Assembly (NCBI GenBank): GCA_903879985.1
Contig: CAIRNR010000007.1
Span: 5,382-69,381, forward strand
DNA length: 64,000 nucleotides
Direction: 5' to 3'
Origin: an uncultured candidate division WWE3 bacterium
GTDB taxonomy: Bacteria > Patescibacteriota > WWE3 > UBA101185 > UBA10185
Shown here one piece after another: positions 4,888-17,471 of the stretch. Position 1 is the stretch's first letter; every line of letters starts with the position of its first letter. The notes under the pieces are model-generated. The model was given only the letters and a program-made list of their open reading frames with translations. It did no database searches and had not been told where the DNA came from. A program made the position numbers and the translations under genes.

Positions 4888-5004
4888 ATATTTTGGGGTG
4901 GCTTCTTAACAAAGTTTAGAACTGCTATTGAGGAAAACATTAACTACATTCCCAAATATCCAGAGTTTGAAGATGTAAGCATTTTGAGCAAACGCTTTAT
5001 TTAG
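4888..5004 (+). pseudogene. copy 2 of orphaned 3' fragment of the serine-recombinase gene (…IFWGGFLTKFRTAIEENINYIPKYPEFEDVSILSKRFI*), begins at att core TTTGGGGTGGC
   Basis: The 11-bp core is identical to 17392..17402 inside the tRNA-His 3' end. The reading frame continues the serine recombinase ORF exactly (…SIWGG|FLTKF…). Confidence 0.7.
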
Positions 5005-5185
5005 TCTTTTCCGCTCCTATCTTCTTATTAAGCTCTTTTCGCTGTTCTGGTGTCATAGCTATAAATCTATCTATCATAAAATTAGCCAACTTATACATAT
5101 GCTCAACAGTTTTTACGATTTGTTCATCAGACATGCCTTTTGCAGTATCTCCAAGTATTGATTTAGCCTTTTCTAGCGTTACCAT
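4997..5185 (-). CDS. small hypothetical protein (62 aa; alternative start at Met18)
   Basis: The ORF is open, but there is no clear RBS. It overlaps the next small gene by 23 nt. Confidence 0.3.
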   Translation of the reverse strand: MVTLEKAKSILGDTAKGMSDEQIVKTVEHMYKLANFMIDRFIAMTPEQRKELNKKIGAEKTK

Positions 5186-5340
5186 CTGTTTCTTTCTTTT
5201 GAATTGGTTTGGTAATAACCTTCATAAAGTTAAAAAGTCTGTTTGCTTTATCAAAGGCTTCTGCGTCACTAAGCTCAACTCCAACCTCTTTTTTATAAAT
5301 CTGCTTAAATTCATCTATCGCTTCTTTTGGTAGTGTCATA
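5163..5340 (-). CDS. small (~59 aa) protein, paralogue of 14027..14218 (shared '…F(K)xxYxKxxGVEL(S/T)xxExxxKANxLxNF…')
   Basis: The start is placed at the internal Met 'MTLPKEAIDEF'. It aligns with the 63-aa product at the other end of the element. Confidence 0.45.
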
Positions 5341-5418
5341 CATAAAATAATACCCTCATAATGGCACTTCTGGTATATAATCCTGCTTAGGTATAGCAAA
5401 ATTAGGATAAATATAAAG

Positions 5419-14659: not shown

Positions 14660-15745
14660 ATGAACAAATATAAAACGAAAAATGAAAAGATAAAGAGAAG
14701 ATATTTTAAATGGTTAAAAGATGCCGAAGGTTTTGCACCTGCTACCATTGAAAGCATTGAAAAAGCCTTATGGGATTACGAAGCATTTAGCCAAGAAGAT
14801 GACTACGCAAATTTTAACGACAAGATGGCTCAAGGGTTTAAAAAATGGCTCTCGGAAAAAAAGCTACAAAGTGGTGAAACCATCAACCTTTCAACTCAAT
14901 ACGATAGGCTTAGACACCTTAAAAAGTTTTTTACTTGGTTATCTGGACAGGTTGGTTATAAATCAAAAGTTGACCCCTACGATGCAAATTATCTACGCCT
15001 TGATAAAAAATTGGCAAAAATTGCAACTGCACCTAAAGTTGAGGATTACCCAACACTTGAGTATGTTAAAAAGCTATGTGATTCAATTGAAATTAAAAGC
15101 GAAATTGACCAAAGGGATAGAGCTTTAATTGCATTCACATTGTTAAGCGGTATGCGAGATAAAGCTATAATCACACTTCCACTTGGTTGCTTTAATCCTG
15201 AAACTTATCAAGTAAAACAATATCCTTCCGAAGGTGTGCAAACCAAGTTCTCTAAAACTATTGATACGGTCTTGTTTCAATTTGATGAGAAGCTATTAAG
15301 CTATATTGTTGATTGGGTTAAACACTTAAAAGAAAATAAAGTATTTGGTATTACTGACCCCTTGTTTCCATCAACTAAAATTGAGCAAATGTCTAAGACT
15401 GAATACATATTTGAGGCTAAAGGTGTTGAACCTATATTTTGGCGTTCAACAAGCACAATGTGCAAGATATTTGAGGAAAGAGCTAAGTTTGCTGAACTTA
15501 AATACTATTCACCTCATAAGTTCCGCCATTCTGCTACTAGATTGGCTACGGACAGTTGCAAAAGTGCCGAGCAAATTAAAGCTGTAAGTCAAAACTTGGG
15601 TCATGAGCATGTGAGTACAACGCTTTTAACCTACGGAAGACTTACACCTTATAGAGTGCGTGATGTTGTGACCGAGCTAAATTTCAAGAAAACAGAACGA
15701 GACGAAAAGATTGAGGAAATTAAAAAACTAATGTCACAGATATAA
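14660..15745 (+). CDS. tyrosine-type site-specific recombinase/integrase
   Basis: 361 aa. The C-terminal catalytic signature is 'FRHSATRL…LGHEHVSTTLLTYGRL' (R…HxxR…H…Y). The N-terminal part is a SAM-like core-binding region. Confidence 0.85.
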   Translation: MNKYKTKNEKIKRRYFKWLKDAEGFAPATIESIEKALWDYEAFSQEDDYANFNDKMAQGFKKWLSEKKLQSGETINLSTQYDRLRHLKKFFTWLSGQVGYKSKVDPYDANYLRLDKKLAKIATAPKVEDYPTLEYVKKLCDSIEIKSEIDQRDRALIAFTLLSGMRDKAIITLPLGCFNPETYQVKQYPSEGVQTKFSKTIDTVLFQFDEKLLSYIVDWVKHLKENKVFGITDPLFPSTKIEQMSKTEYIFEAKGVEPIFWRSTSTMCKIFEERAKFAELKYYSPHKFRHSATRLATDSCKSAEQIKAVSQNLGHEHVSTTLLTYGRLTPYRVRDVVTELNFKKTERDEKIEEIKKLMSQI

Positions 15746-15791
15746 TATAATTAACTTGATACTATAAACTTATAATTGTAAGGTTATTGTA

Positions 15792-17459
15792 ATGGACTAT
15801 AAAGATAAAAATAAAAACTACAGATACATTTTATACGCTAGAAAATCAACTGAATCAGAAGATAGACAGGTTGCCTCAATTGATTCCCAAATAAGTGAAA
15901 TGAAAAAGTTAGCAGAAGATATTGGTTTAAATATAACGCATGTTATGTCCGAATCTTCGTCTGGTTTTAAAATCGGCAGACCTGTATTTAGCCAAATGCT
16001 TGAAATGCTACAAAATGGTGAAGCTGACGGCATTATTTGTTGGAAGCTATCAAGACTTTCAAGAAACCCTGATGACGCTGGAAAAATTATGGGTATGCTT
16101 CAAAGAGGTGAGATTAAACACATTAGAACCCATGCAAGAGATTGGTATCCCGATGACAATGTAATGATGATGTATGTTGAATTTGGTATCACAAACCAGT
16201 TTAGTGTTGACCTACGAGATGACACAGCACGAGGTATGCGTAAGAAAGCTGAAAGAGGTTGGAAACCAACAGCACTATTGCCATTAGGTTACTTACACAA
16301 CATGTATAACAAAAAGACCTCTCCCCTACCTGAATTTGAAATTATTTGCGACCCCGATAGATTTGAATTAGTTAAACTAGCCTTAGAGCTAGTAGCTTCA
16401 AGGGCAATGACACCTGCTAAAGCCTTAGAACATATAAATGGCTTAGGACTAAGAACTAAACGAGGCAAAAAACTTTCATCTGGTACTTTCTATCATATGA
16501 TGACCAATGAGTTTTACTACGGCGATTTTGAACACCCAGAGGGCACAGGAAACTGGTTTATAGGCAAACACACACCAATGCTCACTAAAGACCAGTTTGA
16601 TTCAATCCAACGAGTTATAGGCAATAAATCTACACCCAGACCACAGTTTAAATTCTTTTCATTTACAGGTTTGATTAGGTGCGGTGAGTGCGGTTGTTTT
16701 GTTACTGCTGAACGAAAAGAAAAAATAATAGTGACCAAAAACGAAGTTGGAATTTATATCTACTACAGATGTACACACAAAAAAGGTAGTTCTTGCTCTC
16801 AAAAACCTATTGAACTTTCAAAGCTAGAGGCACAATTTAAAGACCAACTAGCAAAAATCTATATACCACCTGAATTTGCAGAGTGGGCAGTTGAGGAACT
16901 TAAAAAGGAGCATGAAAAAGAAAAACAAAGCAGAGGTATAAGCACTACATTAAATAACAAAAACTATGATGAAGCCATTAAAAAGATGGATAAACTACTT
17001 GAAAGTTACCTTAATGGCGATACTCCACACGATACCTACAAATTAAAAATGGCAGAATTAGAAAAAGAAAAGAAGGTCATTAAAAACATGATTGACCATA
17101 CTGACGAAAGAGTTGAGGAATGGATTAGGAAGGCAGAAGACATACTAAACTTTGCAATACACGCAAAAGAGGAGTTTGAACTAGGTAGTCTAGCAAAGAA
17201 AAAAGCTATTGTTGCGTATCTCGGCTCGGAATTGAGACTAAAGAACGGTTTAATCTCTATATCAATACAAAAACCAATTGAGGTTATCCAAGATTACTCA
17301 ATTAGAGCTAACGAAATTTCTAAAGGGTTAGAACCGCTTGAATTGGTTGGTAATAAAGCAAAATACCGTGCTTCTTTGAGTGAAAATTCTATTTGGGGTG
17401 GCCAACGGGGATCGAACCCGTCACCTCCGCTTCCACAGAGCGGCGCTCTAACCAGATGA
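15792..17459 (+). CDS. large serine recombinase (resolvase/invertase N-domain + recombinase domain + zinc ribbon); integrated-state ORF with surrogate C-terminus read from antisense tRNA-His
   Basis: 'YARKSTESEDRQVASIDSQ' holds the catalytic Ser, followed by 'LSRLSRN' and 'CGECGC…C'. The last 19 codons run antisense through the tRNA-His. The native C-terminus lies at 4903..5004. Confidence 0.85.
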   Translation: MDYKDKNKNYRYILYARKSTESEDRQVASIDSQISEMKKLAEDIGLNITHVMSESSSGFKIGRPVFSQMLEMLQNGEADGIICWKLSRLSRNPDDAGKIMGMLQRGEIKHIRTHARDWYPDDNVMMMYVEFGITNQFSVDLRDDTARGMRKKAERGWKPTALLPLGYLHNMYNKKTSPLPEFEIICDPDRFELVKLALELVASRAMTPAKALEHINGLGLRTKRGKKLSSGTFYHMMTNEFYYGDFEHPEGTGNWFIGKHTPMLTKDQFDSIQRVIGNKSTPRPQFKFFSFTGLIRCGECGCFVTAERKEKIIVTKNEVGIYIYYRCTHKKGSSCSQKPIELSKLEAQFKDQLAKIYIPPEFAEWAVEELKKEHEKEKQSRGISTTLNNKNYDEAIKKMDKLLESYLNGDTPHDTYKLKMAELEKEKKVIKNMIDHTDERVEEWIRKAEDILNFAIHAKEEFELGSLAKKKAIVAYLGSELRLKNGLISISIQKPIEVIQDYSIRANEISKGLEPLELVGNKAKYRASLSENSIWGGQRGSNPSPPLPQSGALTR

Positions 17460-17471
17460 GCTATGGCCACC
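17394..17471 (-). tRNA. tRNA-His (GTG), with G-1 and encoded CCA
   Basis: The cloverleaf was folded by hand: GGTGGCCA acceptor, anticodon loop CTGTGGA, T-arm GGGTTCGATCCC. Its 3' end is the att core. Confidence 0.85.

Follow-up and report, generated by a model that had tools for sequence, protein, structure and literature searches.

The stretch of DNA analysed here, 64,000 nucleotides (nt) long and hereafter called the window, comes from an uncultured candidate division WWE3 bacterium (assembly GCA_903879985.1, contig CAIRNR010000007.1, positions 5,382 to 69,381). At the 3' end of its tRNA-His gene lies a 12,500-bp element that carries restriction-modification-type genes and, next to the tRNA, the gene for a large serine recombinase (LSR), whose open reading frame (ORF) runs on into the tRNA gene in antisense. 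A sequence-only reading of the window had proposed that the attachment core of this element falls inside the recombinase gene, such that integration separates the gene from its own 3' end. In what follows, attP and attB are the attachment sites of the element and the chromosome, attL and attR are the two junctions, P' and B' are the right arms of attP and attB, and nucleotides of an arm are counted from the tryptophan (W) codon of the core. The features on which the argument turns are:

4873..4891, forward strand: left arm of attB/attL; chromosomal, downstream of tRNA-His in the empty site and contiguous with core and tRNA in the empty-site contig L086
4892..4902, forward strand: distal core (attL), TTTGGGGTGGC, one of only two matches to this pattern in the window
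4903..17402 (equivalently 4892-17391), forward strand: integrated element, 12,500 bp, flanked by the two 11-bp cores; exactly this stretch is missing from L086
4903..5004, forward strand: orphan LSR 3' end, 33 codons (FLTKFRTAIEENINYIPKYPEFEDVSILSKRFI) plus stop, in frame with WGG at 4894-4902; doubles as the P' arm of attP
4915..4923, forward strand: TTTAGAACT in P', resembling the T-arm and occupying nt 22-30 of the arm; presumably the attP motif for the zinc-ribbon domain
15792..17459, forward strand: LSR, integrated-state ORF, 555 aa; residues 1-537 native, residues 538-555 (QRGSNPSPPLPQSGALTR) from antisense tRNA-His
17326..17335, forward strand: T-arm-like palindrome GGTTAGAACC inside the LSR ORF, 65 nt upstream of the W codon
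17392..17402, forward strand: proximal core (attR), TTTGGGGTGGC, spanning LSR codons (I)WGG and the tRNA 3' end
17394..17470, reverse strand: tRNA-His(gtg), the integration target (ARAGORN)
17410-17418, forward strand: antisense of the tRNA-His T-loop, GATCGAACC, part of the B' arm

Results

Occupied and empty states of the site

The core repeat has exactly two matches in the window, where 0.01 would be expected by chance, and none of 100 shuffled sequences held two; both lie where the sequence-only reading had placed them, and there is no third. Nine of the 11 bases are the antisense of the tRNA-His 3' end (GCCACCCCA), and the remaining two lie beyond the tRNA. To find an empty site, we looked up the exact proteins of the flanking genes, an M16 peptidase (3501-4793) and an SBP_bac_5 protein (17572-19005), in public assemblies. 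Most of the contigs recovered carry the island as it stands in the window, and one metagenome contig, L086 (ENA ERZ18625396, scaffold_21860; SAMEA6872771), holds the empty site. Its nt 1-760 correspond to window positions 18151-17392 and its nt 750-2533 to positions 4902-3119, both at 100% identity; the two matches overlap by 11 nt, i.e., the core, and exactly 12,500 bp are missing. The sequence at the site, ...GACAATTTAGATATTTTGGGGTGGCCAACGGGGATCGAACC... (on the window strand, ...GTGACAATTTAGATATTTTGGGGTGGCCAACGGGGATCGAACC...), consists of the left flank, a single core and tRNA-His.

The tRNA-His gene is intact in both states, and the copy in L086 is identical to that of the window. The occupied site was found in several other samples (ERZ18624244/SAMEA6872759, ERZ18625568/SAMEA6872773, SRR5754711 and ERR4195937), the contigs from the last two of which break at the attL repeat. 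Because L086 is empty and the window occupied, with identical flanks, both states occur in nature and recombination is confined to the 11-bp core. The earlier prediction of an excision that circularises about 12.5 kb and leaves the tRNA whole therefore stands with respect to the boundaries and to the tRNA gene; its circular junction was not found. Forty nucleotides to the left of the active core, and in the same frame, there is also a degenerate core-like sequence (4849-4861, GATTTGGGGTAAT, reading LIWGN and then a stop), which may be a remnant of another old junction.

The recombinase gene and its displaced 3' end

The LSR contains the Pfam domains Resolvase (PF00239), Recombinase (PF07508) and Zn_ribbon_recom (PF13408). 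Its last 21 codons overlap tRNA-His in antisense, the codons I-W-G-G being ATT TGG GGT GGC with W as the antisense of CCA, and the frame ends ...ENSIWGGQRGSNPSPPLPQSGALTR and a stop (also given as ...SLSENSIWGGQRGSNPSPPLPQSGALTR and a stop), so that it does read through SIWGG and on across the tRNA as had been noted. At the distal repeat, the corresponding frame reads I, a stop, IFWGGFLTKFRTAIEENINYIPKYPEFEDVSILSKRFI and a second stop. The first of these stops lies two codons before the W, and a start codon is absent. The sequence-only reading had described this frame as 35 codons without a start: the frame and the missing start are correct, and the length is 33 residues after WGG, or 36 codons counted from the W.

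That the 33 orphan codons (4903-5001) are the native C-terminus of the LSR is supported by their register. The orphan reads W1GGFLTKF8R9T10, which places R9-T10 exactly where they occur in the unsplit tails of homologues (see below), and orphan tails of other elements agree. An AlphaFold model of the reconstructed 570-aa protein (mean pLDDT 81.6) has the fold seen in full-length integrase-DNA complexes of the SPbeta-type, Bxb1 and phiC31 enzymes (E = 1e-19 to 1e-10), with long helices (360-464) between zinc-ribbon strands and a predicted helix (533-550, pLDDT ~80) that crosses the split junction. Across homologues, the Y-A-R-K-S19 motif and the R88/R91 block show little or no variation. By its domains, its fold and its site architecture, the protein belongs to the large serine recombinases.

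A family of tRNA-fused recombinases

With the reconstructed 570-aa protein as query, a database search returned more than 1,000 homologues at E <= 1e-10. Among the matches listed, all are conserved up to the W/M/L-G-G position, i.e., over about 94% of the query, and past this position they form three groups: tails that are translated tRNA T-arms (e.g., RWDSNPRPPLPQSGALTN), proteins cut at contig ends, and free tails (e.g., MGTMLDTFRTKI..., MGDLLDIFRTKF..., LLRLCDNIRTCL...). We fetched 80 loci belonging to species-representative genomes, 80 to metagenomes and 10 to viral contigs, and examined 166 LSR genes; the loci are overwhelmingly from bacterial metagenome-assembled genomes, mostly of Patescibacteria. 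Eighty-five of the 166 genes run in antisense into a tRNA 3' end, and in all of them the codon matching CCA ("position 1") keeps a fixed register; 21 are cut at a contig end; and about 15 of the 60 others are also tRNA-fused, stopping early. The targets comprise 14 tRNA species (His 29, Asn 20, Gln 12, Ser 7, Ala 3; Gly, Lys, Trp, Leu and Tyr 2 each; Ile, Arg, Met and Asp 1 each). Core codons co-vary with the target (WGG, MGG or LGG for His; LLR or WLR for Asn; VCA for Lys; WRR or LRR for Ser; WQA for Trp); the tRNA acceptor stem dictates the protein sequence at these codons.

Roughly 25-35 genes are unsplit and have tails with R-T at positions 9-10. Their motif is x-L-x-D-[VI]-R-T, with a hydrophobic residue before R9-T10 and usually D, E or N before that. 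Unsplit relatives thus extend past W/M-G-G with a motif in register with FLTKFRT, as the sequence-only reading had anticipated; it had looked to homologues that natively end near WGG as the contrary case, and the relatives that seem to end there turned out to be tRNA-fused or cut at a contig end. In one distant subclade that contains only unsplit genes (L094, L146, L153, L156, L160, L163 and L165; also L084), tails are long and conserved as protein, ...DDVRTY.QKA.RAAALIYAHFKKEFG..., and there, at least, the C-terminal tail appears to have a role at the protein level. Two further tails (P0033 and P0055) share F..F.IQPL at the protein level.

Orphan tails also occur in other integrated elements. 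We scanned the DNA upstream of every tRNA-fused LSR for a repeat of that gene's core with the motif behind it, and obtained orphan cores with tails at the far end of seven other elements, 3.8-10.8 kb upstream of the LSR:

L057/L113: tRNA-Asn, 10.2 kb
L034: tRNA-Lys, 8.3 kb, core 9/9
L055: tRNA-Gln, 10.0 kb
L145: tRNA-Tyr, 8.6 kb
L060: tRNA-Leu, 3.8 kb
L066: tRNA-His, 10.6 kb
L070: tRNA-Ser, 10.8 kb

The search gave 10 upstream matches on the plus strand, against one on the opposite strand, one downstream and none with reversed cores in the controls. Because most elements exceed the 10 kb of flank available, seven is a lower bound.

A T-arm motif shifted by 5 bp

In serine integrases, the motif bound by the zinc-ribbon domain occupies half-site positions 16-24 in attP and 11-19 in attB (Rutherford et al. 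2013, PMC3783163), and this 5-bp shift underlies the discrimination between the two sites (PMC3783163). The right half-sites of the present family show the same outward shift. In the window, TTTAGAACT at 4915-4923 in P' (of which TTTAGAAC is 4915-4922) is paired with GATCGAACC at 17410-17418 in B'. Across the family, the P' consensus is GGA-CGAC-GTTCGAACC, with GTTCGAACC at nt 22-30 in the free forms, and the B' consensus is GGG-ATTCGAACC; GGA at nt 15-17 is common to both. The octamer TTCGAACC sits at nt 23-30 in 23 free forms and nine orphan tails versus nt 18-25, in the T-loop, in 83 tRNA arms. The T-arm mimic in P', GTT[CA]GAACC, is therefore exactly 5 bp further out than the real T-loop.

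Codon choice in the tail follows this motif. Arg9 is encoded by CGA or AGA in 24 of 25 well-anchored tails (compared to 36% of the Arg codons elsewhere in the same genes), Val8 by GTT in 15 of 15, and Thr10 mostly by ACC; the conserved R-T is thus for the most part a signal in the DNA. The left arms, in contrast to P', show no conservation when the nine orphan sites are compared. The identity block extends over nt -2 to 9 in the window (11 bp) and over nt -2 to 6 in L070, and both blocks include the centre predicted from the motifs, ~nt 4-6; the crossover dinucleotide would accordingly lie at about nt 4-6, i.e., at tRNA positions 73-71.

A second T-arm-like sequence, a palindrome, lies within the LSR ORF. 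GGTT[AC]GAACC is present at nt -65 or -64 in 59 of the 85 integrated homologues, where its codons read R/A-L/F-E-P with a strikingly uniform usage: GAA in 68 of 68, TTA for 44 of 50 Leu, TTC for 16 of 19 Phe, and a preceding Arg that is always AGG or CGG. It is alternatively read one nucleotide out of frame, as K-V-R-T-S instead of RLEP. These patterns point clearly to a DNA-level element that is too distant from the crossover for a canonical half-site, and it might be an accessory control site.

An older tail copy and tandem insertions

The window contains one more copy of the arm, core and tail, outside the element:

3019..3150, forward strand: older second copy, arm plus core (CTTGGGGTGGC) plus complete tail coding sequence (WGGFLTKFRTAIEENINYIPKYPEFEDVAILNKRFI and stop)

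Positions 3019-3149 and 4873-5003 form a 131-nt direct repeat of 89% identity that covers 21 nt of left arm, the core and the complete tail, and the similarity ends at the stop codon. The older copy lies 1.85 kb to the left of the active attL, and part of it (window 3119-3149) is also on L086, whose end corresponds to position 3119. It probably represents the attL, now a fossil, that an earlier and related element left behind. Since the two tails differ at six synonymous and only two non-synonymous codons, they suggest purifying selection on the tail in two separate elements. This copy was revealed by a 13-residue scoring matrix built from 17 free tails, which by itself is too weak to identify tails (the orphan ranked only 7th among 128,000 window positions). 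The sequences to the left of the two copies (4794-4891 and 2901-3037) were considered as decayed LSR 3' ends; this is unsupported, local alignment scores falling within the range of shuffled sequences. Between the fossil attL and the M16 peptidase gene there is a 46-codon ORF (3280-3420, forward strand) for an extremely acidic peptide, MSKNGPDDDEDEDTPDPEDNDADGIGDDGQDDSGDDDSDDSDTDDQ, which is called as a gene in other assemblies.

Successive insertion at one tRNA is also seen elsewhere in the family. One locus, L001 (10001-15092), has an unsplit LSR 3.3 kb from a tRNA-His that seemed unoccupied, an interpretation that we rejected: the frame entering this tRNA reads ...DDCTIWGG followed by WRGSNPRQPLPQSGAL, and belongs to a 3' LSR fragment that matches P0001 residues 476-553 (E = 7e-8), making the locus a tandem array. 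The fragment indicates that another element entered the space separating the first LSR from the tRNA, gave its tail to the first LSR gene, and later decayed. Three other loci (L056, L062 and L073) have the same layout: an unsplit LSR is followed, 7-9 kb downstream, by a second and still largely complete LSR fused to tRNA-Asn. In all four, to judge from this arrangement, the tail of the later element supplies the missing end of the resident LSR gene. The absence of a conserved left arm is in keeping with insertion next to a site already occupied. For the other free forms, the downstream DNA (up to 10 kb) contains no tRNA, and they may be unintegrated elements. Assemblies often break exactly at the LSR/tRNA junction or in the 131-nt attL repeat (21 loci, e.g., L015, L019, L039 and L041; also L087 and L088), which would fit mixed occupied and empty populations, or repeats.

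The adjacent tyrosine recombinase

As the sequence-only reading noted, the element also encodes a tyrosine integrase:

14660..15745, forward strand: tyrosine recombinase, 361 aa (Pfam Phage_integrase, E = 8e-11; PHROG integrase)

A tyrosine recombinase adjoins the LSR in 14 loci, mostly those with the LSRs closest to that of the window (including L001, L005, L008 and L104-L109), and most of these target tRNA-His. An iterated profile run against the upstream DNA found none in 60 of 72 tRNA-fused loci (with >= 9 kb available in 45); the upstream neighbours in ten of these loci are replication proteins (Phage_rep_O, an AAA_25 ATPase, a Prim-Pol fusion) or unknowns. In the subclade of the window, the tyrosine recombinase might serve in dimer resolution or provide a second route of integration. 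Because the register is kept in loci that have no tyrosine recombinase, the fixed tRNA register is a property of the LSR, and we infer that the LSR catalyses integration.

Cargo and neighbouring genes

The remaining genes of the element are:

4997..5399, reverse strand: two small ORFs, 62 and 78 aa; no Pfam, PADLOC or PHROG matches, called as genes on other contigs
5419..6834, forward strand: DUF2779 protein, 471 aa (Pfam PF11074, E = 5.5e-41)
6903..9257, forward strand: N6-adenine DNA methyltransferase of the type I/IIG kind, 784 aa (Pfam N6_Mtase, Eco57I, HSDR_N_2; PADLOC REase_MTase_IIG, MTase_I, mad2)
9259..10653, forward strand: restriction-modification specificity subunit, 464 aa (PADLOC Specificity_I, E = 2.6e-26; mad5)
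10650..11378, forward strand: HARE-HTH plus PD-(D/E)XK nuclease-like protein, 242 aa (Pfam PF05066, PF11645)
11497..13600, forward strand: two proteins, 394 and 311 aa; sole match phrog_37634 (unknown function), to the first protein
13774..14218, forward strand: DUF5659 protein (87 aa; Pfam PF18903) and 63-aa ORF; conserved module upstream of the recombinases
14187..14603, forward strand: helix-turn-helix (HTH) plus CxxC...CxxC zinc-ribbon protein, 138 aa (from sequence; weak HTH matches)

The methyltransferase, the specificity subunit and the PD-(D/E)XK protein fit the description of this region as a defence island. The predicted HTH/zinc-ribbon protein is present as well, with two CxxC pairs. 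In both the window and L005, the recombinase pair is preceded by a set of DUF5659, small ORF and HTH genes in the same order. The position of the 14187-14603 gene is taken in L001 and L005 by an HTH_17 (excisionase-type) protein, and its product can be viewed, by inference only, as a candidate recombination directionality factor.

Outside the element, the window holds genes of bacterial type (a type IV pilin, the SBP_bac_5 solute-binding protein and the M16 peptidase). To the left of the fossil attL, positions 1500-3000 have a GC content of 0.44-0.47 versus ~0.34 around them, and neighbours of this stretch called on other contigs include an ArsR-type HTH protein, Thioredoxin_3 and ArsP_1; it is possibly another acquired segment.

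Discussion

As sequence anatomy, the arrangement has good support, and the 12.5-kb element, with its restriction-modification-type cargo, was very probably inserted at the 3' end of tRNA-His by its own LSR, whose ORF contains attP. Under this model, attP would lie in the 3' end of the LSR gene, where the codons I-W-G-G are antisense to CCA, the discriminator base and the last bases of the acceptor stem, and would form the identity block that contains the crossover. The P' arm would encode the last 33 residues of the LSR together with the shifted T-arm look-alike, and the B' arm would present the real T-loop. Integration would leave LSR residues 1-537 beside the tRNA, ending in 18 antisense-tRNA residues, and would strand the native 33-codon tail 12.5 kb away at attL, with tRNA-His completed by the last bases that the element brings along. 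On excision, the two parts would be joined again into a gene for the 570-aa protein, across a predicted attP junction of ...GTGAAAATTCTATTTGGGGTGGCTTCTTAACAAAGTTTAGAACT....

The findings that weigh against this account concern the circular form of the element, the symmetry of its site, the tyrosine recombinase, and the tail itself. Among the fetched loci there were no circular contigs as judged by terminal overlaps; an exact look-up in a collection of 15 billion proteins did not return the fused 570-aa protein with either tail variant; and the DNA pattern of the tail and attP had no match in viral contigs, in which the LSR family is rare and distant. A circular form of the element is predicted. 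A mirror-image T-arm motif, sought in the left arms of P and B, was not found, which would make the site less symmetric than textbook LSR sites, and some of the apparent free forms are chimeras resulting from tandem insertion. The 3' ends of tRNA genes, with identity blocks of ~7-11 bp, are the classic targets of tyrosine integrases, so the 11-bp block in tRNA-His would also suit the tyrosine recombinase. This enzyme appears to be intact, retaining R...HxxR...H...Y in alignment to solved integrases, and it lies directly upstream of the LSR and is conserved beside it in the subclade of the window. It could then be the integrating enzyme, with an LSR gene that only abuts the site and serves in, e.g., resolution or inversion. 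We regard this as improbable: the LSR-tRNA register holds in the 60 of 72 loci that lack a tyrosine recombinase, the crossover lies inside the LSR ORF and is neither within nor beside the tyrosine gene, and the P' and B' arms, including the window's own sites, display the 5-bp shift specific to LSRs. Least probable of all is that the 33 distal codons stand open by chance or survive from some unrelated gene, the LSR natively ending in the tRNA-antisense peptide. Thirty-three open codons are not in themselves rare in AT-rich DNA, and the low rank of the orphan in the matrix search would suit such a view; but the frame is closed two codons upstream of the W and has no start, its residues are in the exact register of the family motif with the DNA motif at the predicted offset, the second copy in the window is conserved to the stop codon and not past it, and the same arrangement recurs, against controls, in seven other elements. 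Moreover, the endings read from antisense tRNA change from one tRNA to the next and break off arbitrarily.

Whether the split matters to the enzyme is a separate question. The integrated state encodes an LSR without its native last 33 residues, about 6% of the protein at its C-terminus. The change may well be real and yet functionally neutral, a reading to which we give somewhat less than an even chance: a dispensable C-terminal extension would overlap the P' arm, R-T would be a DNA motif only, and the two forms of the enzyme would act alike. The codon choice at positions 8-10 reflects a constraint on DNA, the split falls downstream of every catalytic and DNA-binding domain, and disorder is predicted for the last 20 residues (pLDDT < 50 for residues 552-570). 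Past R-T, the tails vary in length and sequence, and integrated genes end after 2 to ~49 arbitrary codons, many of them only 2-4 codons past the core; variable, partly disordered tails and early stops suggest that the tail may be dispensable. Against neutrality stand the excess of synonymous differences between the two tail copies of the window, the helix predicted across the junction, the long protein-conserved tails of some subclades (...RAAALIYAHFKKEFG in seven loci, and F..F.IQPL), and the persistence of the arrangement over many clades and 14 tRNA species. It is possible, if doubtful, that the exchange of C-termini has a regulatory role, and a difference in activity between the full-length and truncated enzymes, e.g., in directionality or stability, is speculative. 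In the more specific, and rather unlikely, form of this idea, the swap would be a sensor of state: only the excised circle would encode a full-length enzyme that is competent for integration or differently stable, the integrated copy encoding a truncated one altered in directionality or activity. Were this so, a second element arriving at the same tRNA, as in L001, L056, L062 and L073, would restore the resident integrase gene, and elements could reactivate each other.

The preferred reading, integration by the LSR through an attP within its own gene, has several implications. It runs counter to the generalisation that serine integrases avoid tRNA genes (PMC7192596) and to the generalisation that recombinases disrupting their own genes exist only in archaea (PMC8371274). 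It also shows a route to tRNA targeting, in which the conserved T-arm supplies the attB motif, and a shifted copy in the last codons of the enzyme supplies the attP motif; because this copy is written into the last codons, a single sequence is constrained both as a DNA site and as protein-coding sequence. Through changes in three codons, the family has come to use at least 14 tRNA species as targets, and it offers a natural series for studying or engineering the specificity of serine integrases. It occurs mainly in Patescibacteria, whose mobile elements are poorly known. A practical consequence is that gene callers assign tRNA-fused integrases false C-termini derived from antisense tRNA (...DSNPRP...). 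We found no prior description of this LSR family in the full-text open-access literature, and it is apparently undescribed.

Canonical large serine integrases (phiC31, Bxb1, A118/LI, TP901-1 and SPbeta SprA) share with the present enzyme the Resolvase, Recombinase and zinc-ribbon domains with a long coiled coil, the same fold, and an integrase gene at the end of the element beside its attachment site. They likewise use short sites with a small identity block and an attP motif lying 5 bp further out (PMC3783163). Enzymes of this class cross over at a central dinucleotide common to attP and attB, and integrate in one direction, a recombination directionality factor being required for excision. 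Here, however, insertion is at a tRNA 3' end, attP lies within the integrase coding sequence such that integration alters the protein, the left half-site is not recognisably symmetric, and insertion beside an occupied site seems to be tolerated, producing tandem arrays. In a survey of 297 serine-integrase elements, 14 were candidates for insertion in t(m)RNA genes, a use that "has not been reported previously" (PMC7192596).

P4-like and other tRNA-targeting islands resemble this element in their insertion at tRNA 3' ends, in the element's copy of the last bases that keeps the gene intact, in the direct repeat at the far end, in defence cargo, and in tandem accretion at one tRNA. They probably differ in using a tyrosine integrase, which lies at the tRNA-proximal end, whereas family-wide evidence here points to the serine recombinase and the tyrosine gene is second from the end. 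In addition, the repeat here is short (9 nt of tRNA), and the arm of the element, without duplicating tRNA sequence, holds an imitation of the T-arm whose position is shifted.

Genes whose product changes upon integration are known from the integration-dependent immunity of mycobacteriophages (BPs, Brujita and relatives), in which attP lies in the 3' end of a phage gene, and the viral and prophage forms have different C-termini that act as a switch (PMC3694055). In that system the split gene is a repressor and the integrase is of the tyrosine type, whereas here the integrase itself is split; no repressor was identified at the LSR/tRNA junction. The piece removed in the phages is a proteolysis (ssrA-like) tag, and the tail here ends in ...ILSKRFI with no AA-type tag evident.

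A further parallel is that drawn by the sequence-only reading, to the int(N)/int(C) partition of the SSV type. These "suicidal" tyrosine integrases of archaeal viruses and plasmids (SSV1, pTN3 and pT26-2) have their site in their own gene and target tRNA genes, so that the gene is partitioned on integration and restored on excision, and the split has been taken to preclude integrase-mediated excision without an intact copy (PMC8371274). The element in the window likewise has attP inside the ORF of its own integrase, which is partitioned on integration. Beyond the own-gene site and the split, the comparison holds as an analogy only, since the SSV-type enzymes are tyrosine recombinases of archaea and the present enzyme is a serine recombinase of bacteria. 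The SSV-type split fragments the integrase gene; here only the last 33 of 570 residues are lost, and the known catalytic and DNA-binding domains stay together.

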